From Myxococcales bacterium (GTDB taxonomy: Bacteria; Desulfobacterota; Binatia; HRBIN30): a stretch of DNA of 64,000 nucleotides. Shown here piece after piece: positions 15,196 through 46,526 of the stretch. A model generated the notes under the pieces. It was given only the letters and a program-made list of their open reading frames with translations, did no database searches and had not been told where the DNA came from. The position numbers were made by a program, and so were the translations under genes. Location: positions 1-64,000 of the forward strand of contig JBBILD010000012.1 in the NCBI GenBank assembly GCA_037445065.1. Direction: 5' to 3'. The stretch's first letter is position 1; every line of letters starts with the position of its first letter.

Positions 15196-15205
15196 GGAGG
15201 GCAAG

Positions 15206-16396
15206 ATGCGAGCCGAAGGATTTGAAAAAACCATGTACAAGACGATTGGTCTCCTCACCCGCGCCCTGCGCGGAGGTTGGCGCTTGAGGAGAAGCAGTGC
15301 AGGCCAGCAGGCGAGTGGGCGCGCTCGCTTTGCTGGGTTGCCATTGGCGCGCGCGGCGGGCCGGCTGCTGAGTCTTGCCTTCGTGTTCCTGGCGGGGGGC
15401 GCCGGCGCCCAGCAGCCGCTGCGCGTGGTGGCCACCCTGCCCGATCTCGCTTCGATCGCGCGCAGCGTCGGCGGGGAGTGGGTGGTCGTGGACTCGTTGC
15501 TGCGCGGCGGGGAAGACCCACACTTTGTCGAGCCGCGCCCGAGCTTTATTAAACTGCTGTCGGCGTCCGATGTCTTCTTGGTTGCGGGGCTGGATCTGGA
15601 ACTGGGTTATGGGCCGCGCCTTCTCCAAGGTGCACATAACCCGCGCATCTTGCCGGGTTCACCCGGCTATGTGGACTGTTCGCGTGCCATTGTACCGCTC
15701 GAAGTTCCGGCGGCCCCGGTGGATCGCTCGATGGGGGACGTTCACCCCTACGGCAATCCCCACTACTGGCTCGATCCTCTCAACGGAATCCGGGTTGCGG
15801 CACTCGTGGCCGAGGCGTTGGCTGCTGCCCTGCCCCAGCAGCGCGCTACCTTCGAGGCAAACCGTACTGCCTTCCGCCAGCAGGTGTTGGCACGGCTTGT
15901 GGGTGAGCGCCTCGCGCAGCAGTACGACGCAGAGAAGCTAGCGTTACTGGCCGAGCGCGGCAGACTCGAGGAGTTTCTCCGCGCGCAAGGAGACCTCGAG
16001 CTCCTCTCCGGCTGGCTGGGTGTCCTCGCCCCCTACCGCGGCTTCAAAGCGGTGGACGACCACAACATGTGGCCCTACTTCGCGCGCCGTTTTGGCTTCG
16101 AAGTCATTGGCCACATGGAGCCCAAGCCTGGTATACCACCGACGACCAAAGCGCTCAGCGAATTGGTCGAGCGCATGCGCGCGCAAGGAGTACGCATCAT
16201 TCTGTCCTCGCCTTACTACGATCCCAAACACGCCCGCTTTCTGGCCGAGCAGACCGGCGCTCGGGTGGTGCCGCTGGCGCACATCACCGGCAGTCGTCCG
16301 GGTACGGACGATTATCTTGCGATGATCGACTACAACGTGCGCGAGCTGGCCCGTGCCCTTGCTGCCGAGTTCGGGGCGCCCGCGGAGGCACAATGA
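15206..16396 (+). CDS. Zn/Mn ABC transporter substrate-binding protein (ZnuA-like)
   Basis: [34 protein letters not shown]. Start uncertain. Confidence 0.9.
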
Positions 16397-17148
16397 AGGG
16401 AATCCACGGCGACCGGCCACCGGTGGTGTTGCGTGCGGTCGGAGTGAGCGTCGGGTACGGCAAGAGAGAGGTACTGCGCAACGTCTCGCTCGAGGTGAGG
16501 CGGGGGGAATTCTGGTTTTTCTTGGGCGCCAACGGAACCGGCAAGACGACCTTCTTGCGCGCCTTGCTGGGGCTTGTGCCAGTGCGCCGCGGGCGTCTCG
16601 AGCTGCACCCGAATGGAGCGGCGCCCGCAGCGCTGGCCTTGGTTCCCCAACGCTGCGAACTGAACCCGAGTTTGCCGACCACCGTTTCCGAGTTCGTTTC
16701 GCTCGGCTTCGTGGGGCTCCGCCTGACCTTGCCCGAGCGGCAGCGGCGTTTCCGTGCGGCCCTAGAAGCGGTACAACTCCTCCCCCTCGCCCACGCCAGT
16801 TACTGGAAGCTTTCCGGCGGGCAGCAGCAGCGCTGCCTGATCGCACGAGCGCTCGTGCGGGAGCCGCGCATCCTCTTGCTCGACGAACCGACCACAGGGC
16901 TCGACCCTGCCTCGGAAGTGGCCCTCTTGCGTTTGTTGCAAGAGCAAAATCGAGCAGAGGAGCGGACCGTGCTGTTCGTAACCCACGACCTCCGACCTGC
17001 CTACCGCTACGGCTCGCACGTTGCGCTCTTCCACGATGGCGGCGTGACTGCCGGGCCGGTCGGCACCGTGCTCACCGCAGCGCGGATGAGCGCTGTGTTC
17101 GGAGAAGGTGCGGTCGAGCTTGCCGGGCAACTCGGAGGGCATCCATGA
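16393..17148 (+). CDS. Metal ABC transporter ATPase (ZnuC-like)
   Basis: [31 protein letters not shown] overlap with upstream gene. Confidence 0.9.
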
Positions 17149-18008
17149 TGTGGGCGCTCTCCGAGTTCGCGCAGTCCTGGGCTTTATTCCACAACACCTA
17201 CCTGGCGGGGTGGTTCATCGCCGGGCTGTTATCGCTCATCGGTGTGGCCGTGGTAGCACGCGATCAAGTGTTCCTGGGACTTGCCGTTTCTCAATCCTCG
17301 ATGCTTGGCATTGCCTGCGGCATGCTGTTCGCCGCCCCGCTCGCTCGTCTCGGTTGCGATTCTTGCGGGCGGGAGGAAGCGCTCTCGCTGTGGGCCGCGC
17401 TGTTCGGCATCCTGGCAGCCCTCGCCACCACGCAGGGACAGCGACAAGCCGGCCGGGAGACCCCCGAGGCGATCACGGGTTGGGTGTTTGCTTTTAGCGC
17501 CTCGTTAGCGGTGTTGCTTCTCTCACGCAGTCCGCACGGCCTCGAGGAAGTGCACCGTCTCCTCTCGAGCACGATCATCGGCGCCACGGCTACCGAAGTC
17601 GTTTGGTTCGCCGCATTGTTCTTGATCACGGCTGCCTTTGTGGCGGTGCAGAGGGACTCGCTGGCCCTCTTGCTTATGGACCGCGAAATGGCCGGCGCCG
17701 TGGGCATGCCGGTGCGGGTGTGGGAGGCGCTGCTCTGGGTATGGCTCGGGCTCAGTGTCGGACTGGCCATCCGGGTGGCTGGGCTCCTCTACGCGTTTGG
17801 CTGCCTCGTGCTGCCAGCGCTAGTGGCAAAGAACCTGGCCCGAGAAGTCCGTCCTCTCTTTTATCTGTCCCCGTTTCTCGCGCTAATCACATGCACGTGC
17901 GCTTTCGTGACAGCGAACGCGTACGATCTGCCACCCGGTCAGGTAGCAACTGCGGTGCAAGCCTCAGTCCTCCTCGGGGTTTGGCTCCTCCGCTCGGCTC
18001 GACCCTGA
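17145..18008 (+). CDS. Metal ABC transporter permease (ZnuB-like)
   Basis: Multiple TM segments, [10 protein letters not shown] motif, operon context, ATGA overlap. Confidence 0.88.
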
Positions 18009-29314: not shown

Positions 29315-29348
29315 CCCCCCCAACCCGGACCCCAGTTCATCAGTTCAT

Positions 29349-29654
29349 GGACACCCACTTTACTGATCCGTGATCCGTGGACACCCACTTTATCTGGAGG
29401 TGATCCGTGGACACCCACTTTATCTGAGGTTTATCTGGAGGGTTTATCTGAAGGACACCCACTTTACCTGAACAAGACGCCCCCCGTCGGGTCCCCTGGA
29501 TTCCTGGTTCGCTGGACGCCCACCCTACCCACGTTCACTCCGGTTCCATCTCCGTCCTCCCTCCCCCAGCCTAGAGCGGGTCCCCCACTTGTCCTTGTCC
29601 TCCGACCTGTCCCCTGGATGTCCCCTGGACACCGATGTCCCCTGGACACCCACT
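29349..29654 (-). repeat. TGGGTGTCC motif cluster 1 (reverse orientation) with 30-bp tandem units
   Basis: GGACACCCACT at 29349, 29379, 29409, 29453 and 29644; TGTCCCCTGGA three times near 29608-29646. Confidence 0.85.
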
Positions 29655-30230
29655 CTGCCGTCATGCGGGCCGCCCCCGCCGGGTCGCTGATCCATACGTC
29701 CCCCCTCAGCTTCCCGCTCTTGCTCGTCGTGAAAACGTCCGCGAGCAACTTTCCTAGCCCTGAGCGGTCGGCTTCCGTTGATAACCGTGGACTCAAGCGC
29801 AACCTGCTGCCGAGCGGCTGCTGTCGTGCGCACCCGTCGTCGCGGTGATGACTCGTCTACCCAATGGGCACGCACTCGCTGTGGCTTTCTGCGTTTCCGT
29901 CCAAATCGGCGCAGAGGGCACAGAGTGCGCCCACGAGCCCCGGAACTTGCCTGTGGGGTTCTAAACTTGCAAACGGCTGTTCGAGCTACGGATCGCCGGT
30001 GTGAACGGGAGCCAGTGAACACCCAGCGCAGTGTCGACCGACACACGTTGCCTCGTTAGCCGAGCCGATGGGCAACCAACTTTCTGGCCACCGCCCACTG
30101 AGCCGTTGCAAAGTGCCGGTAAAATCGGGCGCTCCACCAGTAGCTCTGTTTACGCTGGTGGAAGGAGCCTCAGCTCTACGGACAGGTCAGCAGCAAGGCC
30201 CAGCAAAAAGGCCAACGGAGCGATCTGGGG

Positions 30231-30437
30231 GTGGGTGTCCGCCGAAATGCCTCAACGGACAGGTCGGCGCAAATGCGCGTTGGCCGGCATGCAGGCGAAC
30301 GGACGCGTGAGCCGTGCCCCCCAAGGAGGGCGGCCCGTAGGACACTCCAGGAGTGGGTTTCCGAAGGACATCCGTGAGTCGTGACCCCCCGGGAGGACGG
30401 CCCGTAGGATACTCCAGAAATGGGTGTCCGAAGGACA
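30231..30437 (+). repeat. TGGGTGTCC motif cluster 2 with ~67-bp imperfect tandem duplication
   Basis: Motif at 30232 and 30421, variant at 30354; units 30306-30370 and 30373-30437. Confidence 0.8.
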
Positions 30438-30705
30438 CAAACGCCCAACTAAGCGCGGTACGCAACAGGGCGCAGCTGCTCGCGACGTAGACTTGGCCTG
30501 CCTGGTTGCGGAGTGGAAAGGGGTTCTGCTTTCGCTGATGCCGTGGACCGTAGGGTCAGCTTAGCGAGCGCAGGCCTCAGAGAACGCTCTCACTCGTGCT
30601 CTGCGTTCCTCAAAAGCGGCAATCCGACTTACCGCACGACACTCCGGCGAGCGTACGTGGATGAAGTGGAAGGAAGATTGAATCAGTCGCGGTAACCGGT
30701 CCGCC

Positions 30706-31695
30706 TCACGCTGCTTGCTGCGCGAAACCAGCAGCGACTTCTTCACCGGACAGATACAGCCGCCGGGCGGCGCCTGTGCCCATGCACTTCCTGCAACCGC
30801 GTTGTGCGGCCTCCACGCGGATGCGCTGCACCTCTCCAGCCATGGTGAAAAAGGTGCGTGAGAAGCACCGCACGGCCCACAGGAATCCCTTCTCCTGCAG
30901 CCCGAACCGCTTCAACAACTCCCGCGTTCGGCCCTCCATCTCTCGCTTTTCGTCTAGCAACCCTCGGGCTGCCGCTTGGAGAAGCGCCACGTAATCAGTG
31001 AGAGTAATCTCAACGGCCGCGCCTCCCTGCCGTACTTGTTCTCCCTGGAGCGGGGCTAACCACCTGCAAGCACGGCCCCGTTCTGCATGGCGGAGGCGCT
31101 CCCGCACCGAAGTAAACCGCTGCCCCCGGACGCTGCGCGCGAGCCCCGCGCGAATCGGGTTCAGATCCACGTAACTCATGCAGGTGAGAACAGCCCCTTC
31201 GTCCATTAACGCCTGGGTTCGGAAACGGCCCTCCCAAAAGCGTCCTGTGCAGCCGTCTTCCCGATTGGCCCGCCGCGCAATCGCCTCATTCAGGCAGCGC
31301 ATGAACCAGCTCAAGTCCCCGAGCCTTGCACGCCATTCCACCAAACGCCGTTGCCGCTCCTCCAACGGCAGCAGCCGCCACTGCCTGACGCTGAGTGGAA
31401 ATAACTTTCGCCAGCGGATGAAAACCTGCCCATCAGTCCACCTCTCTACCTGCTCCGGCTGTAGCCGCACCACTAAGTGAAGGTGGTTGCTCATGACCGC
31501 GTACGCACACACCTTTATGGCGAACACTCCGCCCAAATGCCGCAGGCGCTCCACAACCCAACGCTTACGGTGGTTGAAATTCCGGCCCGTCACGGAATCG
31601 TGGCCGCACAAAAATGCCCGCCGGACACAGCGCGTAATGCAGTGGTAGTAGAGTGTGCGTTCACGGTTGACCAACACTTTCCTCGGTAACGGCAT
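30706..31695 (-). CDS. Stand-alone long-type RAYT / TnpA-REP-like HUH Y1 transposase
   Basis: YHCITRCVRRAFLCG, AVMSNHLHLVV (HUH), FWEGRF, CMSYVDLNPIRAG (catalytic Tyr). Confidence 0.92.
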   Translation of the reverse strand: MPLPRKVLVNRERTLYYHCITRCVRRAFLCGHDSVTGRNFNHRKRWVVERLRHLGGVFAIKVCAYAVMSNHLHLVVRLQPEQVERWTDGQVFIRWRKLFPLSVRQWRLLPLEERQRRLVEWRARLGDLSWFMRCLNEAIARRANREDGCTGRFWEGRFRTQALMDEGAVLTCMSYVDLNPIRAGLARSVRGQRFTSVRERLRHAERGRACRWLAPLQGEQVRQGGAAVEITLTDYVALLQAAARGLLDEKREMEGRTRELLKRFGLQEKGFLWAVRCFSRTFFTMAGEVQRIRVEAAQRGCRKCMGTGAARRLYLSGEEVAAGFAQQAA

Positions 31696-31701
31696 GCGCC
31701 C

Positions 31702-31731
31702 GTTCTAGCGCAACATTTGTATCAATGTCAA
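31702..31731 (-). promoter_or_regulatory. Putative sigma70 promoter for RAYT (leaderless transcript)
   Basis: TTGACA (31731-31726), 18-nt spacer, TAGAAC (31707-31702), 6 nt before the ATG. Local AT-rich patch and no SD. Confidence 0.45.
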
Positions 31732-32020
31732 GTCTAAGATATTAAACATTCTACCGCAGATGAACGTAATCCAATCTGCGACATTAGTGTGTATCTGGAA
31801 TGAGTATAACACATGGCTTACTACGAGCAGCAACAGCGACCCTATCTGTGACCCTCTGAGCTTCCGAATCATTATCCTTGCCGCACTCGGCGAGTGGCTG
31901 CGCAGGAGTTCTCGTTTGAACCTCCCCCTGCCGCCAACATCTTGGGCGCAAATCTTTGTGCCCCCCTTCAGCGGCCCGCTCCGCAGGAAGAACGAGGCAA
32001 CCATGCTCTGATGCAAAGCA

Positions 32021-32155
32021 CAAATCTTCCGCCTTGGGGCTGCTACGTCCGAGGACGTGGTCGCCCAACCCTTAACGTCGAGGTTCACGGAACCCGGCCC
32101 ACTGGGTGGCCGTCCAACCACCGAGCTCCCTGCAGTGGGTGTCCGTGGATCAATG
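32021..32155 (+). repeat. 135-bp direct repeat, copy A
   Basis: Ungapped match to 35054-35188; 14 mismatches by hand count. Confidence 0.9.
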
Positions 32156-32351
32156 GTGGATCAATGATGATGGGTGTCCATGGACCAATGCACTGCAGTG
32201 CTGCGCAGCGGCCATCGTCCAGTGGATGTCCGTCGACTCCTGTGGTGTGCAGCGGCCATCATCCAGTGGGTGTCCACGGACTTCTGTCCACGGACTTCTG
32301 GACTATCCGTGGACCACTGGCGCACACGGACCGGCTTGCAAGTGGGTGTCC
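32136..32351 (+). repeat. TGGGTGTCC motif cluster 3
   Basis: Exact copies at 32136, 32171, 32267 and 32343; variant at 32223; internal short duplications. Confidence 0.85.
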
Positions 32352-32475
32352 GTCGAAGAACGTGCATCGAAGGCCAATGGACGAACTCTGGGGCACCCGG
32401 CCTGGCCGGTCCCAACGCCCGTTTCGGGGAAACCGGGACAATGTCCGGGAGATCAGGCCGAGAGGCAACGGGCTC

Positions 32476-33279
32476 TTACAGCGTTGGTGGGGGAAAGGGC
32501 CAGTTCGAGGTTTCGGTACCGCCGTCGATTTCGAAAACCTTCCCTGTCACCCAGCTCGATGCGGGCGAAACTAAATAGAGTGCCGCAAGCGCAATATCCT
32601 CTACGGCGCCCAAACGGCGCATTGGAGTCAGTGCCTCCATTTTCGCCCGCAGGTCATCGTTCAAAAACGGAGTCAAGGCGGACGTTTCCGTGGCGCCGAC
32701 CGCGATCGCGTTCACCCGAACTTTCGGAGCAAACTCGTGACCGAGCACCCTCGTCATGTGCGAAAGCGCAGCCTTGGCCGTGCTGTAAGCTACGAATCCC
32801 GCCAGCGGAAACCGCCCTGCCGCGGACGAGATGTTGAGCACCACTCCACCACCGGCAGTTCGAAGCATATGGGGAACTGCCAACCGAGTGAGCAGGAACG
32901 CCGAAGTCACGTTGAAGTGAAAGGCCTCCTCCAACATCCGTTCGCTCGTGTAAAGAGCCTCGCAGGGCGGGGTTCCGCCAGCATTGTTCACCACAATGTC
33001 GATGCGGCCAAAGTGCCGCAACGTTTCTTCGACCACGCGTTCGAGATCTTCCCTCCGATTGACGTCGCAAGGAACTGCCAGCGCGCGCCCTCCCAACTTC
33101 TGCACCCGAGCTGCGGTGTCCTCGATCTGTTCCCTCGTACGTGCCGCGCAGACGACATTTCCACCCACCTCCGCGAATGCCAGCGCACACCCTTGGCCGA
33201 TTCCTCGGCCTGCGCCCGTAACGATCGCAACTTTTCCGTCCAAACGAAAACGATCTAGGATCACTTCTCCTCCCTGCAC
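32476..33279 (-). CDS. Short-chain dehydrogenase/reductase (7-alpha-HSDH-like)
   Basis: TGAGRGIG, NNAG, YSTAK. Confidence 0.93.
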   Translation of the reverse strand: MQGGEVILDRFRLDGKVAIVTGAGRGIGQGCALAFAEVGGNVVCAARTREQIEDTAARVQKLGGRALAVPCDVNRREDLERVVEETLRHFGRIDIVVNNAGGTPPCEALYTSERMLEEAFHFNVTSAFLLTRLAVPHMLRTAGGGVVLNISSAAGRFPLAGFVAYSTAKAALSHMTRVLGHEFAPKVRVNAIAVGATETSALTPFLNDDLRAKMEALTPMRRLGAVEDIALAALYLVSPASSWVTGKVFEIDGGTETSNWPFPPPTL

Positions 33280-33285
33280 GCCCCA

Positions 33286-34359
33286 TCAGGCCGGAAGCCG
33301 GTAAAACCGCTCCGCATTGAGCGCCAAGATCTTTTCCTTCACCGCCGGGCCTAGATCGGTTCGCTCGCGCAACGGCCGGGTGGATTCCGGCCACTCACTG
33401 TCCCAATGCGGGTAGTCGCTGGCGAACATGATGAAGTCCGAACCCAGGCTGTCGACCGCAAGCGGGATCCCGCACTCGCCCGCCTCGCAGCTAACGTAAA
33501 GCTGCCCGCGCGCAATGTACTCCTTAGGCTCATGTTTGCACTCCGGTGTTAGCCGTCCGCGCTTCTCCAAATGTTCCTCGATCCGCTCCATCAAGTAGGG
33601 CACCCAACCCACGCCCGACTCGAGCAGAGCGACGCGCAATCGCGGATGGCGTTCGAAGACGCCTCCGAGGATCAGCGCTGTCGACGCCACCATCATGTCA
33701 AAAGGAAAGCTGATGACATGGACCTTGAGGTAGTTGTCGAATCGCTCCGTCCCCAGCTTCGGCAAGTGGATTCCGGGAGCGCCATGGATTCCAAGCGGCA
33801 TGTCCATTTCTTCGGCTGCGTCGTAAAACGGATCGAGATCCGGATGGTCCAGATTTCTCTCGCGTAGCACGGCCGGAATCATGGTCACGACAAGTCCCAG
33901 GTCTTTCGCTTCGCGCATGACCGCGATGGCGGACGCCACATCCTCGATGGGAACCAAGGCGGCTCCAAAAAACCTTCCCCGACCCTGCTTACAGTACTCC
34001 GCAAGCCAACGATTGTATGCCCGCGCGAACTCGGCCGCAAAACTCTGATCTACAAAGCCGGGAAGACCCAGGGCAGCACTGGGAAAAAAGACGAGGCGAT
34101 CTATGCCGTCCCTATCCGCGTCCGCCAAAACCCCGTCAGCGGTAAAAGGATTGGCACCGCGTTCCAGGCACATCCCTTCCTCGGCTCTACAGCCCGCACC
34201 CGGGCCGCGCGACTGTGGATACGGCCGACCTTCAATGTACAAGGCCGTGTCTCCATCCCCTGGGTCACTGAAACGGATCTTGTCAGGGAACCGCTCGAGT
34301 AACTCTGCCATCAACTCCCTGCCCTCGATCACATGGGCGTCAGCATCGACCACCTTCAT
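33286..34359 (-). CDS. Amidohydrolase_2 family protein
   Basis: DADAHV, AYNRW, FERHPRLRVALLESG, FASDYPHWD. Confidence 0.92.
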   Translation of the reverse strand: MKVVDADAHVIEGRELMAELLERFPDKIRFSDPGDGDTALYIEGRPYPQSRGPGAGCRAEEGMCLERGANPFTADGVLADADRDGIDRLVFFPSAALGLPGFVDQSFAAEFARAYNRWLAEYCKQGRGRFFGAALVPIEDVASAIAVMREAKDLGLVVTMIPAVLRERNLDHPDLDPFYDAAEEMDMPLGIHGAPGIHLPKLGTERFDNYLKVHVISFPFDMMVASTALILGGVFERHPRLRVALLESGVGWVPYLMERIEEHLEKRGRLTPECKHEPKEYIARGQLYVSCEAGECGIPLAVDSLGSDFIMFASDYPHWDSEWPESTRPLRERTDLGPAVKEKILALNAERFYRLPA

Positions 34360-34997
34360 GCTTGCTTCTCCTCAATCCGTGAACGCTTGTTCACCCAGGA
34401 TTGTCGGAAAACTCCGGGCAGGTCAAGCACGCTGGAACCTCCCCGTGGCCGACGTGCGTGCAAGACTTTGGCCTGCAGACTACTCATGTTGTAGGGAGCC
34501 CTGCTCCCTACCGAGGCTGCCAAACTCCCAAACGCTCCCCCGACTCAAGTCCGCTCCTCCCCCAAGTGAGGCACCGCGCCGCTCGCAATCGCTCCAGCGG
34601 TACTCGCGGCGGAGCCGTCCTCGCTCCATCTCTTGCTCCACGACTGGACCGTCGCCCGCTCGGGCGTGCCGAGGACACCGCGCACGGAAAGCGTCGGCTC
34701 GCGTTGCGACCAAAGCCGCGAAATCACACGCGAGGTCTCTATCGCCCTTGCTGGCCTCCCGTCCGCGCAAGGGTCCGCATTAGCCCGGTAACGGAGCGCT
34801 CGTAGGCTCTCTTCTAGGGCTGCTTGAGCCGCAGAAGGCTTCCGGCCCGGCGAGCCAGCCTGTCCCTAGGAGACAACGCTAGCCTCCGGAACGGGCGACA
34901 AACCACCTCACTGGTGTCCATCAGCATCTCCCAACCAACCCGTGATTACTTACCGCTCCATGTTGGCGTCCAACCGAGAGCCCAGGGGTGAGTAAAG

Positions 34998-35210
34998 TGG
35001 ATGTCCACGCTCAGAGGTGGGCGTCGGAAAAGTGGGTGTCCAAGGAAGAGACTCAAATCTTGCGCCTCGGGGCTCCTACGCCCGAGGAGGTGGTCGCCCA
35101 ACCCTTAACGTCGGGGTCCACTGAACTCGGCCCACTGGGTGGCCGTCAAACCAACAAGCTCCCTGCAGTGGGTGTCCATGGACCAATGCCGTCCAACGGG
35201 CGTCCGTGGA
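34998..35210 (+). repeat. TGGGTGTCC motif cluster 4, including 135-bp repeat copy B (35054-35188)
   Basis: Exact copies at 35033 and 35169; variants at 34998 and ~35197. Confidence 0.85.
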
Positions 35211-35357
35211 CTTCTCGTCGACAAATTTGGGACCAGCAGCGTAATTTTTTGTCAACAGAAAATTGCGTCCTCCCGGCCGTGGGAGCGCATCAGTCGCGGG
35301 CCTCCCGAGCTGAAAGGACGAAGCGAAAGGAGGTCCGAGGATCGTCAAACGGGGTTC

Positions 35358-37268
35358 ATGGTTTGGGATTCCTTTGTTTCTTCTTTCCGCCGCCTGGGCG
35401 GGGCTGGCCCTGCTGTGGCCGGTGGCGCCATTGGCAGCCGCCCAATCCCAGGTGGGTTTGGCCCAGGCCAAGGTGGCGCTTTCCAGCATGGATCGCGGCT
35501 GGGTGCCCAACGCGGGCCAGTGGGACGAGTAGGCCGCCTTTGCCGCACCGGGTTATTTCGGCACCACGTGGGTCACTAAAGAGGGCGAGCTGCGGCACGT
35601 GTTGGTCCAGAAAGAAGACCGTGAAAAGGCCGAGGACCGCGGGGCCGTGAGAGGCCGCTTCAGCAAGCCCTGCCCCAGCCAGCGCTGGGTGGTTTCGGAG
35701 CGCTTTGCGGGGGGCAAGGTGCAGGCCATCCGTCGGCAGGAGGAGCTTCCCACGCGGGTGAGTTACCTACTTGGCAACGACCCGGCCAAGCACCGTTCCA
35801 ACCTGCCCACCTACCCGCGCGTGTGGTTGGGGGAGGTGTGGCCAGGGGTGGAGGTGGTGCTGGCAGCTCAGCAGAAGACGGTCGAAAAGCTGTTGATCCC
35901 GAAGCCGGGGACGGAAGCAAGCCAGGTCCAGGTGGCCCTTTCTGGGGCTGAGGGTCTGGAGTTGGCAGACCGTGGCGCGCTGAAGGTGCGCACGGGTTTG
36001 GCGGAGGTGGAGCTTTCCCCACCGGTGGCCTGGCAAGAAATCGGCGGCAAACGGGAGCCGATGGTGGTGGGTTACCAGCTTTTGGGGCCCAACCGCTACG
36101 GCTTTGTTCTGGGCGAGCACCGCAAGGACCTGCCGGTGGTCATTGACCCGATCCTGCAGAGCACGTACTTGCGAGAATCAGACGAGGACGACGCCAACTC
36201 GCTTGCCCTATCCTCCACCGGCGAGGTGTACGTGGCGGGGCGGACCGACTCGACCGGCTTCCCCGTCACCGCCGGCGGGGCGGACGACACCTTAGATGGG
36301 TTCTCCGACGCCTTCGTGGCGTGGCTGGACCCCGGGCTCACGAGCATCAACCGAGCCACTTACTTGGGGGCTCGGGCGGCCACGTTGCCACTAGCCTCGC
36401 CCCTTCCTCAACCGGGGAGGTGTACGTGGCGGGAGTTACCGGCTCGACCGACTTCCCCGGTACCAGCGGCGGGGCGCAGGGCACGTACGGGGGTGGCTTG
36501 ACGGACGCCTTTGTCTCGCGGCTGTCGGGCGGGTTGGCGGCGACGCTGGTGGCGGATATGTCGGCGAATGCCCCCAGCGTGCCACCCTCGTTGAGCCCCG
36601 CGGGCGTGTATTCCGGGTTGAGCTTCTCCTGCACCAACGCGGGCCCCGACCCCACCATCAACGCCAACCGCAGCATTGTGGTTTCCGCTGGCACCGTGAG
36701 CGGCGTCAGCTGCACGCCTGGGGTGCCGGTAGCCAGCCTGCCCTCGAGCAGCAGCATCAACTGCAGTTACACCTTCGCCGCCCCAGGCAGCCCGGGCGGT
36801 GGCAACACTTCCCAGCCCGGCGTGGTCTTCACCGTCACCGCCAGCGCGGACAACGACAGCAACGCCGCCAACAACACCGCCAGCTCCGGTGCCAGACCCA
36901 TTCCCCTGGTGGATGCCCTGAACGACAGTGCCACCTTCCCTGCCAACACCGGCCAAACCTTCAACCTGGCCACCAACGACCAGGTGGGCACGGGCGCCCC
37001 ACCAGCGGGCGCAACCTACAGCCTGCAAAGCACCACCTGCGCTGGGGCTTCGGTGAGCGCTTCGGGTGTCGCCACCTTTACCGTGCCTGCTTCCGGCAGG
37101 TGCACCATCACCTACCAGCTTTGTTACATCTCCGGTTGCGACACGGCCCCCTTGACGGTGGCGGTGGCGGCTGAGCCCGTCCCCACCTTGGACCAGTGGG
37201 GGCTTTTGCTGCTCACCCTTGCTCTGGGAGGGACGGGTGTGCTTTTGCTGCGCCGCCTGTGGGCGTAG
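35358..37268 (+). pseudogene. Disrupted SBBP-repeat surface protein with IPTL-CTERM-like sorting signal
   Basis: WVPNAGQWDE* (in-frame TAG at 35530-35532), LVIDP-like VVIDPILQSTYL, two VYVAG.T.STxFP repeats, C-terminal VPTLDQWGLLLL...LRR. Frameshift in the G5 run at 36366-36370 and a probable frameshift near 35395. Confidence 0.8.
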
Positions 37269-37290
37269 GGCAGGCTCGAGCTGATGACAG

Positions 37291-37322
37291 CCGGGGCGGC
37301 ATCCGCCGCCCCGGTTTTTTTT
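37291..37322 (+). terminator. Rho-independent terminator
   Basis: CCGGGGCGGC-ATCC-GCCGCCCCGG followed by T8. Confidence 0.88.
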
Positions 37323-37610
37323 GCCCGCCGCGTGACGTCGCCGCCCCACCCACGCCATGGCGAGCGGAGCGTCGCGGAGCGAAGTCCGCAGGACGGCGAG
37401 GCCGCACTGCGGCCGTGGCGGGCTTCACGGGTCATTGCGAGCGGAGCGAAGCAATCCCCAGAGAGAGGGAGAGCGGTGACCCACGGTTAGGTGGAGAGCC
37501 CTGGAGGGACCGGGGATGGGAAAAGTGGGTGTCCACGGGAGGCTCACGGGAGGCTCGGGAGGGAAGGGGTGATGGAGGGGGTGGGGCGGGTGCTATAGCG
37601 GGCAGCCGGT

Positions 37611-40586
37611 ATGCGTCGAACACGCGGATTGGTTTCCCGACTTCGGCTCTTTGGTTGTGACCGTAAGGCGAGTCGGGCGGTTGGGATGCTACAAACCGAC
37701 GACGTGTGTCCGCGAGCGGGCTTTCTGCACCACTGCGCCTGGATCCTTGCAGTCGGCCTGATCTTGGCGTCGCTGGATGCGAAAGCGGCGGACGCAGCGC
37801 GCTGGCAAGCTGAATGCCCGCGGTGCACCGCGGCGAAAAACTACATGGCGCAGGCTGCAGCCCGAGAACACCCAGTGGACACACTCCCGCCTGAGCCGCA
37901 AAGCTGCGCCGCTCCAGGGCCGCGGCACTTGCACTCCGGCACAAAGGAGCAGTGCTCCCAGCCGGCGGCGCCCGCAGTAGCGGGATTGGAGACATCCACC
38001 GACCTCGGTCCGTCCAGTGCTGGTGCCGCTCGTCACGCTCCCGCAGTGCAACGGCCTTGCTCAGAGCTCGGCAACGCCGCTTCGCTCGCACCCGCGCCAG
38101 CGGGTTTCCCTGCGAGACCCGTCAGCGGTCGCCGGCTGTCGCAAGACGGAGATCCTGACGCCCGCAAAACCGCTGATCGCGACGAACGTTCCCACTCTGC
38201 CAGTGCGTCCGAGAGAAACCTCGTACCACCGCTTCTGAGCGCACCCAGAGAGGATGTTTCGGAGAGCCCGCGGCACGCTTTGCCGCAACGGGCCTCCGAG
38301 GCCACCGGCCTGGTCACGGACACCAACCGTGTCCCCGATTCCTCGCATGACGTCGGGCGCTGGTACGCGCTGTTGATCAACGGCGGTGGCACGAAGGAGC
38401 AGAATTACCAATCCCACCTCCTTCATCTGCGGCAGATCACCGACCTCTTACTGGCTGCCGGGGTGCCAGCGTCGCGCATTTACGCGTTCAGCAGCGACGG
38501 CAGCGACCCGGGTCGCGACCTTGCCGTGCGCGGCTTGCCCGCACACCAGGATTTCTGGATCGTCCGCGGCACGCGTGCCGAAGGCTACTTGCGGCCAGCG
38601 CTCCTGTTCGAGAATTCCGAGCTCCCTCCCTTGCGCCTGCGCCCCGCAACCCGGTCTGCCCTCAACCAGTGGTTTGCAACCACCGGCCGCGAGCTGCGCC
38701 TGGGCGACGCGCTGCTCGTGTTCGTGACTGACCATGGCACGAAAAACCCGGATGACCCGGACAACAACTGGATTGTGCTCTGGGGACGGGACGAAAAGCT
38801 CTCTGTGGATGACTTTGCTACCCTTCTCGATCGACTCCGGCCCGGAGTCCGCGTTCTCACCATCATGTCGCAGTGCTTTTCCGGGTCCTTCGCCCGCCTC
38901 GCCTGGTCTGGGGCCAGCCGGAGTTCGCCTCCCTACAAGCAGCCACGCGACCGCTGCGGCTTCTTCTCCACCGTCAAGGAGAGGCCCGCGTACGGCTGCT
39001 ACGCTGAAAACCTCGGCCGCAAAAACATCGGCCACGCTTTCCATTACTTACAGGCATGGGCAGAAACCGGCAGTACCATCCGCGCGCACGAAGAAACACT
39101 GGTGCGTGATGCGACGCCCGACGTTCCTTTACGCAGCTCGGATGAGTATTTGCGAACGCTGCTCCTCCAAGCTGCCGGGCAAAACGGCGAGGAGCTGTCC
39201 GCGCTCGTGGACCGCCTGCTCGCCCGCGCCTGGGAAGATGCGACGCGCTGGGAGCCGGAGGTCCGCCTGCTCGATCGGGTCGCAAGCGCGTACGGACTCT
39301 TCACTCCCCGTAGCTTGGCAGAGCTTGAGGAGCGTACCCGCCTCCTGCCCGATATCGCCGAGCAGTTGCGGAACGTGAGTTCCGCATGGCGCGGCGCTTG
39401 GCAGGATGCGAGCGAAGCCAATTGGGGCCGCTTCACCGAGGCGCACCCTGAATGGCAAAAGCGGCTTGCCGCCTTCGACCAGGGACGACTAACCGACCAC
39501 GAGCGCAGGCTGCTCGCCGAAGAACTGATTCCCGACCTGCTCTCCTTCACCCGAGCCTCGGACCAAACGTATCGCACGCTTCGCCTGCTTCGCCGCAAGG
39601 CCAGAGCCGCGGCTGCAGCTAGTTACCGCCTCGAGGTGCGCCAGGGCGCCCTGCTTCGCTTGGAGCGGCAACTCACTCGGATTGCCGGACTCCTTTGGCT
39701 CGAACGACACGCGTCTCACAAGGAGCGTGAGACGTTCGCTTCTCTCGCACGTTGCGAGGAATGGTTGATCCCCGACCGCGAACTGCCCCACCCGCGGTTG
39801 CTTCTTGCCCGCCCGTTTCCCCCGTTCGACCACGACGTTACCCGCGCGCAGCGGGCGTTGCCGGCCTGGATGGGCATCCAATTCCGCGAGCCGCGCGAGA
39901 AGCTTCGTACCGAATTTGCCCTTTCGCGCGGCGCCGCCGCGGTAACCACTGTTTACCCGGATTCCCCGGCTGCGCGGGCTGGTATCCAACAGGGAGACAT
40001 CCTGCTCGGCCCACCGGAGGCGCCCTTTCGCGACAAGGGCGAGGTGCGGCGCTGGATCATGCTGTCCCGCATCGGCGCGCCCAAGCAACTCCAGCTCTTG
40101 CGGGATGGGAAACAACACACGGTGACTCTCACTCCCGCACCGTATCCTTTCAAATGGCCCGAACTTCCTGGCCCGCCTGCAGTGGGTAGCGTCGCCCCTG
40201 CACTTCCTCCGCTCTCGGCATACCGTGGCGAGCTGCCGGCCATTGCCCAAGGCTCTCCCGTGCTTCTCTTTTTCTGGGCAAGTTGGTGCGCCGCTTGTAA
40301 GGCCGCTCTGCCCGAGCTGCTCGCCTTCGAGCGAGAACGCGCCGTGCCGGTGCTGGCGATTACCGACGAGCCGTCGGAGCGGCTCGAAGCATTTTTCCGG
40401 CAACCAGACCTACGCTTCCCCGACCGGGTTGCCATTGACGAGTACCGCAAAGCCTTTGTGGCTTACGGTGTCAGTGGAACCCCGACCTTCGTACTCCTGG
40501 ACGGTGCGGGTCGCGTGCAAGCATCTCATACGGGCTACGACCGCGGCAAGGGCCTACCATTCGAGGGGTGGAAATGGGCGCCGTAA
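37611..40586 (+). CDS. Multidomain protein: C13/caspase-fold peptidase-like + PDZ + TlpA-like thioredoxin
   Basis: ALLINGG, FVTDHG and MSQCFSG (His/Cys dyad); WMGI..VYPDSPAARAGIQQGD (PDZ); FWASWCAAC..YGVSGTPT (Trx). Start uncertain. Confidence 0.7.
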   Translation: MRRTRGLVSRLRLFGCDRKASRAVGMLQTDDVCPRAGFLHHCAWILAVGLILASLDAKAADAARWQAECPRCTAAKNYMAQAAAREHPVDTLPPEPQSCAAPGPRHLHSGTKEQCSQPAAPAVAGLETSTDLGPSSAGAARHAPAVQRPCSELGNAASLAPAPAGFPARPVSGRRLSQDGDPDARKTADRDERSHSASASERNLVPPLLSAPREDVSESPRHALPQRASEATGLVTDTNRVPDSSHDVGRWYALLINGGGTKEQNYQSHLLHLRQITDLLLAAGVPASRIYAFSSDGSDPGRDLAVRGLPAHQDFWIVRGTRAEGYLRPALLFENSELPPLRLRPATRSALNQWFATTGRELRLGDALLVFVTDHGTKNPDDPDNNWIVLWGRDEKLSVDDFATLLDRLRPGVRVLTIMSQCFSGSFARLAWSGASRSSPPYKQPRDRCGFFSTVKERPAYGCYAENLGRKNIGHAFHYLQAWAETGSTIRAHEETLVRDATPDVPLRSSDEYLRTLLLQAAGQNGEELSALVDRLLARAWEDATRWEPEVRLLDRVASAYGLFTPRSLAELEERTRLLPDIAEQLRNVSSAWRGAWQDASEANWGRFTEAHPEWQKRLAAFDQGRLTDHERRLLAEELIPDLLSFTRASDQTYRTLRLLRRKARAAAAASYRLEVRQGALLRLERQLTRIAGLLWLERHASHKERETFASLARCEEWLIPDRELPHPRLLLARPFPPFDHDVTRAQRALPAWMGIQFREPREKLRTEFALSRGAAAVTTVYPDSPAARAGIQQGDILLGPPEAPFRDKGEVRRWIMLSRIGAPKQLQLLRDGKQHTVTLTPAPYPFKWPELPGPPAVGSVAPALPPLSAYRGELPAIAQGSPVLLFFWASWCAACKAALPELLAFERERAVPVLAITDEPSERLEAFFRQPDLRFPDRVAIDEYRKAFVAYGVSGTPTFVLLDGAGRVQASHTGYDRGKGLPFEGWKWAP

Positions 40587-41551
40587 ACCCGCGCCCGGCC
40601 CCTGCGCCCGTGTCCCGGGCGACAGCCCGGGCGGCGTACCGCGACGAGCAGCTCGGCATTGCCCTTGCCTTGGCCTGTGCCGTCAACGCCGCCTTCGTCC
40701 CGGCCGTAGCCAAGGTGACCACCGCCTACACGGACGCCGCTACGGTGGCGTTTTTGACCACCGTGATCGGGGCCGCCGTCGCTGTTGTTGTGCTTGCCGT
40801 ACGTGGGATGTTATCGGCACTGTGGGCACCGCACCAGCGCGTGTCCCTCTGCCTGCTCGGCATTCTCGGCACTGGCGTCTCTTTCTACCTCTTCTTTTCG
40901 GGAGCAGAGAAGGCAAGCGCCGTGGAGACGGTTCTCTGCCTGCAAATCGAACCCGTGTACTCGCTCCTCCTCGCGTGGTGGTTCCTAGGCCAGCGCCCCA
41001 CCCGGCAGCGCGCTGGGAGTACAGTGGTGATCCTGCTCGGCCTCGGGCTCGCACTCGGGGTCCGCGACTTCCCTTCTTCAGCAGGAGTGGCGTACTTGCT
41101 CGCCACACCCCTGTGCTGGCAACTCTCTCATCTCATCGTTCTGCGCAAACTTGCCGGCGCTCCGCTCGAGGCCCTCACCGCCGCTCGGTACCTTTGGGGC
41201 GCTTTGGTTTTGGGGCTCCTCTGGCTCGCCACGCCAGCTCGCGGCGGCTCCGTGGTCGAGCTTCCGCCGAGCGCGTGGATTTGGCTCGCGATCCAGGGGG
41301 CCGTACTCAGCTACGGCGGAACCACCCTGTGGTACGGAGCGGTGCGGCGCATTGACCTGGCACGAGCTACCGTGCTGGTGGTGCCAACCGTACCGGTGCT
41401 GGCACTGATCGTGAGCTTTCTGCTTCTCGGCGAGGTGCCCAGCTTCCGCGAACTTGTCGGCGTCTCGCTGACCATTGTCGGGGTCACCACCTTCGCTGCC
41501 CGCCCAGCCCAGCACAGGTGGCCGCGGAAACCCGACGACGTCGGAGCCTGA
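40574..41551 (+). CDS. DMT/EamA family transporter
   Basis: About 10 TM helices; LWYGAVRRI, LLLGEVPS. Confidence 0.85.
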   Translation: MGAVNPRPAPAPVSRATARAAYRDEQLGIALALACAVNAAFVPAVAKVTTAYTDAATVAFLTTVIGAAVAVVVLAVRGMLSALWAPHQRVSLCLLGILGTGVSFYLFFSGAEKASAVETVLCLQIEPVYSLLLAWWFLGQRPTRQRAGSTVVILLGLGLALGVRDFPSSAGVAYLLATPLCWQLSHLIVLRKLAGAPLEALTAARYLWGALVLGLLWLATPARGGSVVELPPSAWIWLAIQGAVLSYGGTTLWYGAVRRIDLARATVLVVPTVPVLALIVSFLLLGEVPSFRELVGVSLTIVGVTTFAARPAQHRWPRKPDDVGA

Positions 41552-41728
41552 GCGCGCTTCCATCGTGGGCCCTCGGGTGGGCTTCGCGTGTCGCCTGTCA
41601 GCGACACACTCCGGCAGATCCAGCTGGAGCCGCGCCCCCACTGCCTCGAGCTTCGACCGGGCTGGTTCCGACCCGACCCAGTCGCGCCCGGCTGGTCACG
41701 GCCGCGGCAACTGACCGAGAGGGCAAAG

Positions 41729-42031
41729 CGGATGTCCATGCTTGGACGTGGGCGGGGGAAAAATGGGTGTCCAACGAAGAGAGCACGGTTAGGCGGAGGC
41801 CCGAGGTCGGACCGGCGATCGGCAAAGGGGCGACGGAAAGTATGGGTGTCCACGGGGAGAACTGATCGACGGCAAGGTGCATGAGGCGGAGGGGGGGTAG
41901 AGATGCCTAAGGGGGAGTTACGGACGCCAACGGTAAGAGTGGGTGTCCCAGGAAGGAACCAGCTTCGCGGGCGGTCTGAAAAGTGGGTGTCCACGATAGG
42001 TCTCTCCGGGCGGTCCGAAAAGTGGGTGTCC
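41729..42031 (+). repeat. TGGGTGTCC motif cluster 5
   Basis: Exact copies at 41764, 41843, 41940, 41984 and 42023; 39-bp-period duplication GGGCGGTCyGAAAAGTGGGTGTCC. Confidence 0.85.
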
Positions 42032-42155
42032 GTGGGAGGTCCCAGGAGGTCCCCACTCTGGACGAGCTTGGCGCGGGCGTCTCCACTTGCCCGCCGAACC
42101 GAGCGAGGTTTCGACCCCCGACGCTCCACCCACGGAGGGTGGGTGCTGTGGTCCC

Positions 42156-42365
42156 GAGAATCCTCGCCACTGGGCCTGGACCTATCTAATGCGCCGCGTC
42201 TTCGACCTCGACGTGCTCGCCTGCCCCCGCTGTGGCGGTCGCATGTCGGTGCTCGCGTACGACGAGGCGGAGTCCCTAACACTCGCCGCCCCCCGCGCGG
42301 CTCGGCGCGCGCCGTCATCCACGTGCGGCTCGACCGTCCTACCGGAGCTAACGGCTCCGGGCGGA
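42156..42365 (+). mobile_element. IS91-family transposase C-terminal remnant
   Basis: WAWTYLMRRVFDLDVLACPRCGGRMSVLA resembles the C-terminal W..L..RVF..D...CP.CGG.M motif; no upstream catalytic domain. Confidence 0.65.
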
Positions 42366-42537
42366 GCGGCGGCGAAGGTCCGCGTTCGGCGGTTATGTCT
42401 CCACTCGACTGAGAAGGGCGCTGAAATCGCCTATCTTCCGAGCATCCGAGCGCGGCGCTGCGCCCCTAAATCGAGCAGGCGGTGCGCATCTGTCCGCGCC
42501 AGGCGATTTGCATCGTGGAGGATTGAGGGCGCGGCGA

Positions 42538-43930: not shown

Positions 43931-45562
43931 TCACCGCGGCGGCCGCGGGCTTTGGCTGGCGGCGACGTAGCGCGCCAGGGTGGTGGACATGGCCCCGCGC
44001 CGCAGCATCGCTTCGATGAGGAAGAAGCGGCCGCGGGTGGTAGCAGCGCGTTCGAGCGCCGCCGCCAGCTCCTGGCGCGTCGCCACGCGCACCCCCTCGC
44101 CGCCGAGCACGCGGGCCAGATCGGCGTAGTGCCAGTCGGCAAGGTCGTGGCACCGCGATGCCGGCTGAAAAGCGCGCAGCATCTCCCACCCCGAGTTGTT
44201 GAACACCACCACAATAGGATCCCAGCCGTAGCGCTGGCAGTTGCCGAGTTCGAAGCCGGTCATCTGAAAGGCGCCGTCGCCCACCAGGATCAGCGGCCGC
44301 GTCCCCATTGCCACCTGCAGGCCCAGACCGGCCGGCACGCCGTACCCCATGGTGGCGTAGTAGGCCGGCGCGGTGAGGTGCGTGTAGGCGATGCGCGTGG
44401 CCGTGAACACGCAGTCTCCCATGTCGGCGGCGATCGGCAGCGGCCCGTGCCGGTCCATGAGGTCGTTCACCGCGCAGGCGATATCCTCGGGCGCAATCGG
44501 CGCGGCGTCGGCGGGCAGGCCGCGAGGGTAGCGAACAGGTGGGATCGCCGGGACCGAACGCGGACGCGGCGGCCGGCGCGCGGCGTGCTCGAGGAGCGCG
44601 TCCACGAAGGCTTCCAGCGGCACCGGCGAGTAGGTGTGGAAACCGAGCGTGACGCGGCGGTCGAGCGCCTGGATGGTGCGCCGCAGATCGATCCGCGTCC
44701 GCGAAGCAGCCAGATTGCTGTCGGACAAGATGACTCCGAGGAGCAGGAGGGCATCCGATTCTTCCACCAGACGCGCGATCTCCGCTTCACCGGCTACGCC
44801 GAGGTACGTGCCGAGTGGAGGGACGGGGGCATCGGCAAGCAGACCGCGCCCCATGAAACTCGTCACCACCGGCAACTGCAAGCGGGCCGCCAGCGCCGCC
44901 ACTTTGTCCTCGATGCCGTACCGCTTGACTTCGACGCCCACCATCAGCACTGGCGCCTGCGCCCGGGTGAGGGCCGCGAGCACCTCGACGGCACACGCCT
45001 CCACCATCTCCCGGTCGACGGGAGAAGGCGTCGAGGGCGGCACCGGCGCACACGGGGCGTCGACGAGATCGCGCGGAACTTCGATATACACCGGCTGCGA
45101 GAACTCGCGCGCACTCTGCAGGACGCGGGCTATCGCCACGGGTGCCTGGATGGGTCGTCGAGGACAGCCTGGTCGCAGGTGATCTCGCGGAACACGCGGA
45201 GCTGCGATTCGAGGGTCTTGCCTTGATGGTGCAGCAAGAGGCCGCCGGCGCGTTCGCTGACGCCCGGTGCACCCGAGATGACCACCAGCGGTGATTTTTC
45301 AGCGAGCGCACACGTCGTCGCGTTGACGATGTTCAGTCCGCCGGCACCGTAGGTGACCACCGCCACGCCGAGCCCGCTTCCAGCTCGCGCCGCGGCATCG
45401 GCGGCGAAACCGACGGCGGGCTCGTGGCTCAGCGTGTAAAGAGGCAGGATGGCGCTTTCTTCGATCACCCGGAAGAGGGGTAAGGCGAAGTCCCCGGGAA
45501 TGCCGAACAGCGCTGTCGCGCCGCGCGCGCAGCGCATGCAACAACGTTTCCGCCAGTGTCAT
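43931..45562 (-). pseudogene. ipdC: Indolepyruvate/phenylpyruvate decarboxylase (ThDP), twice frameshifted
   Basis: MTLAETLLHAL | FGIPGDFALP, SHEPAVGFAADA, LLHHQ | AIARVL...GDGAFQMTG...NN lie across separate ORFs; shifts near 45525 and 45147. Confidence 0.85.
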
Positions 45563-45846: not shown

Positions 45847-46200
45847 ATGCCCGCCGGCGCAGGGGGCGCCCTGCCCCACGGCGCCGAGGCCGGGCGTCAC
45901 CCACTCGACCGTCTGGTGCGCGAGCTGTCGCTCACCGGCGCGACCATGCTGGTGGTGTCGTCGGTCATCGGAGTGGGGGTTTTTCTCGCCCCGGGTCGCG
46001 TCGCCCAGGTGCTGCCGCCTCCGGTTCTCTTCCTCGCCGCGTGCGTAGGTGGCGGCCTGCTCTCCCTCGCCGAGGCCCTGGCCAACGCCTCGCTCGGGGT
46101 GATGTATCCGCACGCCGGCGGCGACTACGTCTGCCTGCGCCAGGCCTGCCATCCGCTCGCCGGATTTCTGGTCGGGTAGTTGTCGTTCGTCGTCCGTCCT
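45847..46200 (+). pseudogene. Truncated APC-family amino acid permease
   Basis: RELSLTGATMLVVSSVIGVGVF...YPHAGGDY...AGFLVG* with TAG where Trp is expected; the remainder is absent. Confidence 0.75.
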
Positions 46201-46526
46201 ACCGGAGGTAACGGCTGCGGGCGAAGTGGCGGGGAAGGCCGCGTTCGGCGGTGACGTCACCTCTCGATTGAGAACGCCGCTACAAGCGCCTAGCTGCCTC
46301 GAAGCACGAGGGAGCCGCCGACCAATGCCCGAGACCCTGATCATCCCCTGACGGTTCCGTAGCCCGGAACAGTCCGGAAACAGCGGATACAGGTGCGGCG
46401 TCGTCGCGGTGCTGCTCGACGGGGACGCCGAGGCGGTCGCCCTTGTGCGTTCACGGGTCTCGGAAGTCGTCGTCGAGCGCAAGTAGTCGGATTCCTAGCC
46501 ATAGCGGCTACCAGGGGAACGGGCGC

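Follow-up and report, generated by a model that had tools for sequence, protein, structure and literature searches.

We analysed a 64,000-nucleotide stretch of DNA (the window), positions 1 to 64,000 of contig C12 of a 3.79-Mb draft genome, in which a gene assigned to subclass 2.3 of the TnpA-Y1 HUH transposases lies among clusters of the short motif TGGGTGTCC. Tandem duplications were found to be anchored on this motif and to end 8-12 nucleotides (nt) outside it. These motif-anchored duplications are new; the enzyme class is known and the layout is TIRtron-like. A published description of the motif or of the duplication footprint was not found in the literature searched, in which subscription papers and bioRxiv supplements were not visible. 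The motif is very probably the site of this enzyme.

Distribution of the motif in the window and the genome

The window contains 20 exact copies of TGGGTGTCC, where 0.50 are expected and where none of 100 shuffled sequences had more than 3. Five copies are on the minus strand at 29349-29652, 14 are on the plus strand at 30232-42031 and one coding copy is at 16017. An earlier note on this DNA had reported the motif, and its counts, coordinates and strands were borne out, as was the incidental copy at 16017; the observation of the motif is real. Mapping over the whole genome, which the note had proposed, gave 173 copies against 27-39 expected (Markov order 2-5), 125 of them intergenic according to a crude gene finder. 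The copies are clustered, and 81 of 85 neighbouring copies less than 500 bp apart are on the same strand. The contig ends G000 C7:211900-213703 and C34:1-430 consist of motif arrays with overlapping sequence. Motif clusters thus probably cause breaks in the assembly, and the copy numbers are lower bounds.

Counted as GTGGGTGTCC, 67 of 128 copies lie within 15 kb of three paralogous transposase genes, in 91 kb or 2.4% of the 3.79-Mb genome. The earlier note had assumed a reach of up to 10 kb from the gene; the accumulation near the genes stands, but 61 of the 128 copies lie farther than 15 kb away or on other contigs. These distal copies may have been spread by this enzyme in trans or by hitch-hiking. 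When 17 of them were picked by their upstream sequence, conservation dropped after +8, where +0 denotes the first base past TGGGTGTC (or GGGTGTC), which is the last C of the 9-mer.

The genome also contains a classical repetitive extragenic palindrome (REP) family tagged with GTAG. It has two variants (22 and 18 exact copies) and is found in mosaic intergenic repeats on 20 contigs, for example at L105:3450-4600. A cognate REP-associated tyrosine transposase (RAYT) for it was not found in the assembly.

The motif might serve a host factor of the Chi or KOPS kind, or a different transposase, for instance the one that partners the GTAG REPs, with the subclass 2.3 gene merely co-resident in unstable regions. 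This would fit the 33 of 61 distal copies that lie at most 400 bp from a classical GTAG REP, in mosaic repeats, where another enzyme may carry them, and also the second, unrelated RAYT at 346-845 of the window (minus strand), which has short inverted flanks and lies in frame inside a longer open reading frame. However, no copy of the GTAG REP family was observed in the window or in the homologue loci L001-L080, and both motif strands are used within 3 kb without a link to GC skew. Of 40 distal clusters, 16 were on the G-rich strand, which shows no replichore polarity in what is a weak skew test on a draft genome, and the copies are strongly clustered, not evenly dispersed as for Chi or KOPS. 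Since the position and orientation of the site are also fixed around homologues from several phyla, and none of 27 relatives without a long gene match is enriched, we consider this explanation very improbable.

The motif as a probable end site of the transposase clade

TGGGTGTC ranked first among the de novo 8-mers around 80 homologue loci from several phyla (L001-L080, the best 80 of 577), with 320 copies against 40 expected, and 50 of the loci carry two or more copies. Of 250 copies up to 1.5 kb from the gene on either side, 217 point outward. Of the 75 loci whose flank was long enough, 62 have an outward site at most 400 bp upstream, usually 73-101 bp ahead of the match start, as compared to 12 with an inward site; outward sites on both sides of the gene were observed in 36 of 61 loci. 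The upstream motif stands directly before a TTGAC -35-like box in 19 of the 62 loci (for example L004, L008, L011, L017 and L018), and this arrangement about 80 bp upstream suggests autoregulation.

The association was also tested across 41 genomes, in which kin are not independent. A long gene match (E below 1e-70) was present in 14 of the genomes, and in 7 of these the motif was at least 3-fold above a reversed control; of the 27 genomes without such a match, none reached this ratio. A phylum-wide survey of co-occurrence was uninformative, with the gene in 1 of 150 genomes.

No hairpin was detected at the motif. The folding energies of 265 genome sites and 315 locus sites were no lower than those of flank-swapped controls, and a scan of 29.3-32.5 kb for GTAG or GTGG plus a hairpin gave nine unrelated weak matches and no repeated family. 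With no GTAG REP family copy in the window, the absence of such REPs around this RAYT, stated in the earlier note, holds, and so does its proposal of a linear motif tied to this clade. The co-variation of enzyme and motif that it suggested was tested with a quick tree of 90 rows, from which five duplicate loci and rows below 280 amino acids (aa) were excluded. Across the clade the motif varies little. Its third-position variant GGATGTCC does not follow the enzyme tree, on which it needs 11 changes against 10.5 when shuffled. The C or T after the motif core clusters on the tree (10 changes against 15.0 shuffled) because of kinship. Taken together, TGGGTGTC(C) is likely to be a conserved, non-hairpin end motif of subclass 2.3 Y1/HUH units.

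Tandem duplications end at a distance from the motif

Of the perfect tandem duplications of 10-45 bp in the genome, 14 of 39 are anchored on the motif, whereas about 0.2 are expected. In the homologue loci, 55 of 84 perfect tandem duplications are anchored on GGnTGTC (43 GGG, 10 GGA, 1 GGC and 1 GGT) and five control 7-mers gave 0 each. The mirror geometry is fitted by 15 locus events as well, which we read as duplications spanning the motif. Tandem duplications starting at the 3' edge of the motif were observed at 17 of 263 genome sites against 3 of 1315 random nearby positions, and at 42 of 304 locus sites against 8 of 1520. In an unconstrained profile from -40 to +40, the repeat ends peaked at +8 to +12.

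To define the boundaries, 80 anchored events were collected from the genome, L001-L080, L109 and L110; they are not independent, as arrays and related loci were counted. Microhomology was zero in 47 of them. Of these 47, 45 end at +8 to +12 (with +4 to +15 allowed), without a preferred base or dinucleotide, and their inner starts peak at -2 (15 events) and 0 (9 events) with a tail to -28. Among unanchored duplications, 9 of 21 in the clean set are without microhomology, too few to show a difference. Larger copies in the window also end at the outer boundary: a 67-bp tandem copy at +8, a 58-bp copy at 6.7 kb distance at +10, and a 135-bp copy at 3 kb distance at +11. The 135-bp copy was placed directly after +12 of the 35033 motif. 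Five near-identical pairs of units stop matching 1-8 nt outside the motif, and two of these pairs are 98-99% identical at unrelated loci of one genome. The earlier note had taken the motif as the recognition or cleavage site; the duplication ends point to a break about 8-12 nt outside it.

A route of nicking, strand-displacement synthesis and re-ligation by the covalently bound enzyme probably accounts for these duplications, although our confidence in it is limited. The enzyme would bind the motif. It would nick the strand that reads GACACCCA about 9-13 nt 5' of this sequence, at a position given by the distance and independent of the bases there. By HUH chemistry, as described in the accessible part of PMC8266576, the nick would leave the enzyme on the 5' end beside the motif and a free outer 3'-OH. 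The host polymerase would extend this 3' end toward the motif and displace the enzyme-bound strand. The synthesis would usually halt at the edge of the motif, with 10-15 bp copied, and would sometimes pass through it, with 17-41 bp copied. The new 3'-OH would then attack the phosphotyrosine and fix the tandem duplication without homology. Duplicated copies that contain the motif would be new sites, so that clusters would grow in one orientation. Ends, whole units or cargo would be moved when strands are transferred from one site to another, for the most part close to the gene. The fixed outer boundary, the variable inner boundary and the lack of microhomology fit such a route. A nick-prime-rejoin route has been proposed for the amplification of bacterial interspersed mosaic elements in E. 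coli (PMC3333891, accessible part).

The same enzyme and site might instead produce a staggered cut of both strands by a dimer, at about -2/0 and about +10, and fill-in would duplicate the 10-13 bp between, a product resembling a target-site duplication without an insert. The inner boundary, which peaks at -2 and 0 in 24 of 47 events, and the periods, which peak at 10-13 bp, would fit here, as would the homology of units that sometimes ends at +1. But the starts of 13 of the 47 events without microhomology range from -4 inward to -28 with the outer end unchanged, and the 58-, 67- and 135-bp copies have only the outer boundary in common. The flanks beyond the element ends in the window are inverted and not direct repeats. 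A staggered cut is thus an unlikely origin of the duplications.

A protein that binds the motif without cutting could also block replication forks, and slippage or template switching would then duplicate DNA. The upstream site that often abuts the TTGAC box (19 of 62) makes a tight, repressor-like binding plausible, and the outer boundary is loose. However, 47 of the 80 anchored duplications lack microhomology, Tyr175, His73 and Asn70 are invariant in 61 aligned proteins, and whole units are found at unrelated loci of one genome with 98-99% identity. A roadblock therefore seems improbable, even more so than the staggered cut.

The transposase gene

The gene is located at
30706-31695, minus strand: TnpA-Y1 subclass 2.3 HUH tyrosine transposase gene, 329 aa, open frame.

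The protein contains the motifs N70-H71-L72-H73, W154-E155, Y175-VDLNP and T195-S196, and N70, H73, Y175 and N179-P180 are invariant in the alignment of 61 rows. Subclass 2.3 is described in the accessible part of PMC6006769 (2018) with about 325 aa, the motifs NHYH, WE, YVDLNP and TS, core inserts of 10 and 55 aa and a long C-terminal tail. The window protein has L in NHLH where subclass 2.3 has Y. From the alignment and the structural model, the inserts correspond to a loop near 24-42 and to helices at 80-125 after the HuH strand, and the tail to 196-329. By its length, motifs and inserts the window gene is thus assigned to the subclass 2.3 HUH enzymes. The profiles Y1_Tnp and REP_Tyr_transpos gave weak matches below their cut-offs, and NCBIfam NF047646 gave 48.4 bits, below its cut-off of 80. 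The predicted structure (mean model confidence, pLDDT, 92.5) had its best fold match in the E. coli TnpA-REP 4ER8 with E 3.5e-4. A DnaA-type or subclass 2.1 C-terminal helix-turn-helix (HTH) had no Pfam match and was not among the fold matches listed. No significant match was obtained in Rfam or in a sequence search of the PDB.

The genome has three paralogues, on C12, C7 and C14, with 50-52% identity; the C14 copy has an internal stop. In the tree, the nearest neighbours of the window protein are family relatives and rows labelled Candidatus Binatota. According to the accessible part of PMC6006769, subclass 2.3 occurs mainly in Chromatiales and Alteromonadales, in several divergent copies per genome and without REP-like flanks. 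GGACACCC and GGGTGTCC are absent from two supplementary files of that paper.

Layout of the element in the window

The motif clusters and the segments next to them are arranged as follows.
29333-29461, minus strand: outer end 3' of the gene, four outward motifs with stutter duplications of 7-30 bp
29597-29655, minus strand: outward motif, duplications of 17 and 11 bp, inverted partner of 30351-30376
30232-30437, plus strand: two inward-facing motifs and a 67-bp tandem duplication (30306-30437) ending at +8
32021-32351, plus strand: outer end 5' of the gene, four outward motifs with 11- and 14-bp duplications
34994-35188, plus strand: 58-bp motif unit ending at +10, shared with 41725-41782; from 35054, a 135-bp copy of the element end (+11)
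35189-37525, plus strand: segment between same-strand motifs, with a DUF7948/IPTL-CTERM surface-protein gene in two frames
37526-37557, plus strand: one motif with a tandem duplication of 11 bp that ends at +10/+11
41725-42031, plus strand: five same-strand motifs at the left edge of 5 kb of DNA that four relatives lack

The outer end at 29333-29461 is an inverted repeat of the cluster at 32.13-32.28 kb, including about 10 nt past the motif. Because the left and right clusters are mutual inverted repeats, the strand switch is mainly a layout of inverted ends and not a polarised track. The earlier note had seen here a polarised target system distinct from REPs; the motif is indeed linear and not a REP, but its polarity mostly reflects inverted ends. 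Such a layout recalls the published TIRtrons and makes the system less unprecedented than was proposed. The roughly 10 nt beyond the ends were also considered as a target-site duplication, which was rejected as these flanks are inverted and not direct in the window.

The inward copies at 30.2-30.4 kb and the 29644 copy at 29630-29655 may bound a mini-element of about 0.8 kb without a gene. The sequence at 32021-32155 is the source or a sister of the 135-bp unit ending at +11, and 34994-35188 lies close to the left edge of 3.7 kb of DNA that four relatives lack.

The motif in coding linkers

Three genes for proteins with Pro/Thr linkers flank the C7 paralogue. After exclusion of a 71-aa non-coding frame at C7:213373, the full motif was found in frame in 15 of 129 Thr-Pro-x triplets beside this paralogue and in 3 of 1018 in such genes elsewhere. 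Where the preceding codon ends in GG, the numbers are 15 of 24 and 3 of 44. For the first two linker genes, 12 of 88 triplets compare with 1 of 471 in the orthologues of five genomes without an adjacent transposase gene. For the third, the G020 orthologue, 14 kb from its transposase gene, has 3 of 49 and four other orthologues have 1 of 193. A general codon bias is not the cause of the enrichment, since ACA-CCC-A without the preceding GG is similar near the gene (7 of 105) and elsewhere (50 of 974). An in-frame 27-bp duplication is evident at C7:194363. Pro/Thr linkers are of low complexity and would tolerate an in-frame site, so that the motif could accumulate there.

Proteins with Pro/Thr linkers form a large paralogous family (L101:5893-10832 and 14502-17360; G008, G018, G020, G022 and G024) with 14-16 matches per genome. 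They share a Cys-containing C-terminal domain of about 200 aa without a Pfam match.

Strain polymorphism and neighbourhood

Contigs of related strains were compared with the window. The 67-bp duplication at 30306-30437 is absent from them (runs X2 and X3/X4, where X3 and X4 are nearly identical data). An additional tandem copy in a related strain ends at +12 past the 41940 motif, and a joint was observed that leads from 35053, at +12 past the 35033 motif, across unknown letters to 37031. In four relatives of one sister genus, the genes for a short-chain dehydrogenase/reductase (SDR), an amidohydrolase, a PDZ protein, EamA and an aldehyde dehydrogenase are adjacent and no intergenic motif is present. 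The window has an additional 3.7 kb between the amidohydrolase and the PDZ gene and about 5 kb after EamA. Motif clusters lie near both edges of the 3.7-kb segment and at the left edge only of the 5-kb segment. These edges and the strain polymorphisms fit the putative duplication boundary. The transposase unit lies at the meeting point of two blocks that are apart in the four relatives. Comparison with five other genomes did not show in which direction the two multi-kb differences, or the joining of the acyl-CoA dehydrogenase block to the SDR block, arose. Between G008 and G020, the motif-rich transposase region differs by an inversion of gene blocks.

To the right of the last cluster, a 110-bp direct repeat (83%; 42330-42439 and 46190-46298) brackets a block with a dipeptidase, a thiamine pyrophosphate (TPP) enzyme and a permease fragment. 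We take the ends of this repeat to resemble an integron attC site. The short frame at 42087-42330 (plus strand) has no Pfam match and presumably resembles the C-terminal zinc-finger end of IS91-type transposases. Compensating single-base indels at 45143-45151, within the split gene for the TPP enzyme, and 11 additional bases at 37610 set a contig of the sequencing run that possibly underlies this assembly apart from the window; at both places an error of the window assembly is possible.

Points against the proposed route and its significance

Several observations weigh against the reading that the enzyme nicks at a distance from its motif and copies the DNA between. The inner boundary is sharply peaked at -2 and 0 and could mark a second cut. 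For an HUH cut the outer boundary is loose: it covers five positions, even in a single locus. In addition, 3 of the 5 unit pairs lose homology only +1 to +4 from the upstream motif. The anchored events include arrays and related loci, only one in-gene copy shows a clear recent duplication, and the strain joints rest on single contigs of depth 3-5. As to the site itself, the 61 distal copies and their frequent REP neighbours have to be counted here. The window gene lacks the usual site about 80 bp upstream, and the nearest is about 440 bp away. Seven of the 14 gene-bearing relatives are without a genome-wide excess of the exact 10-mer, some using the T variant, and G069 shows no genome-wide motif excess. 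A few genomes without the gene exceed 3-fold for the looser 9-mer, for example G094 with 31 against 4. The G018 gene is at the same site as those of G008 and G020, yet no TGGGTGTCC is found within 15 kb; this gene (L124:4611-5600) has the longest branch of the tree and may be decaying or have been re-purposed.

Subclass 2.3 is a catalogued HUH family without a known substrate or activity. A defined linear site with a predicted break 8-12 nt outside it makes the substrate question testable with oligonucleotides. Characterised Y1 transposases, in the accessible parts of the cited literature, read hairpins and pick their cut sites by base-paired guides, so that an enzyme cutting by distance from a linear site would represent a different mode of recognition. 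With its 14 of 39 genome tandem duplications and its coding linkers, the footprint may cause local mutations and rearrangements whose source has been overlooked. Speculatively, the subclass 2.3 enzymes could be site-directed, homology-independent writers of duplications, with a linear address of 7-9 bp and a distance ruler. They would make short duplications, stack cargo in one orientation within about 15 kb and be kept by the host for remodelling the Pro/Thr linkers of neighbouring surface proteins. As a tool, a compact enzyme able to write small duplications at a short address could likewise be of use.

Comparison with known systems

The IS200/IS605 elements (IS608, ISDra2) have the Y1 core fold and, as it appears, the mobility of whole units in common with the window family. 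The window family is without subterminal hairpins, has inverted and not asymmetric ends, and has Y-x3-NP instead of Y-x3-Q. To our knowledge, IS200/IS605 elements do not make tandem duplications.

With the E. coli REPtron, as described in the accessible parts of PMC3333891 and PMC8266576, the family shares the HUH/Y1 fold (4ER8), the local amplification of repeats and the nick-prime-rejoin model. Unlike the REPtron, the window unit has no GTAG-tagged hairpin and no preference for C|T at 47 junctions, where the cut sites are deduced from the duplications. The boundary appears to be set by distance, and whole gene-bearing units appear to move. Groups of RAYTs without REPs are covered in PMC5581495, as far as its accessible part goes.

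The TIRtrons or TIRYTs, mostly of subclass 2.1, have the repeat consensus GGGGWSAS in the accessible part of Di Nocera et al. (2013, PMC3733652). They resemble the window family in having a tyrosine transposase gene between inverted repeats, which are both dispersed and clustered. The GGACAC core of the window fits the last six of the eight GGGGWSAS positions, and the next outer base is not conserved as G. In contrast to the TIRtrons, the window family keeps only a core of 7-9 bp, has stuttered array ends and no detected DnaA-type HTH. Site-anchored duplications are found here and are not mentioned in the accessible part of that paper. A diversifying role was proposed for subclass 2.1 and later qualified by its authors (10.1101/2020.03.09.984088, accessible part).

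With subclass 2.3 itself, the window enzyme shares the length, the motifs, the core inserts, the divergent copies per genome and the lack of REP hairpins. PMC6006769, in its accessible part, gives no flanking element, target or activity for this subclass, whereas the window gene has motif ends.

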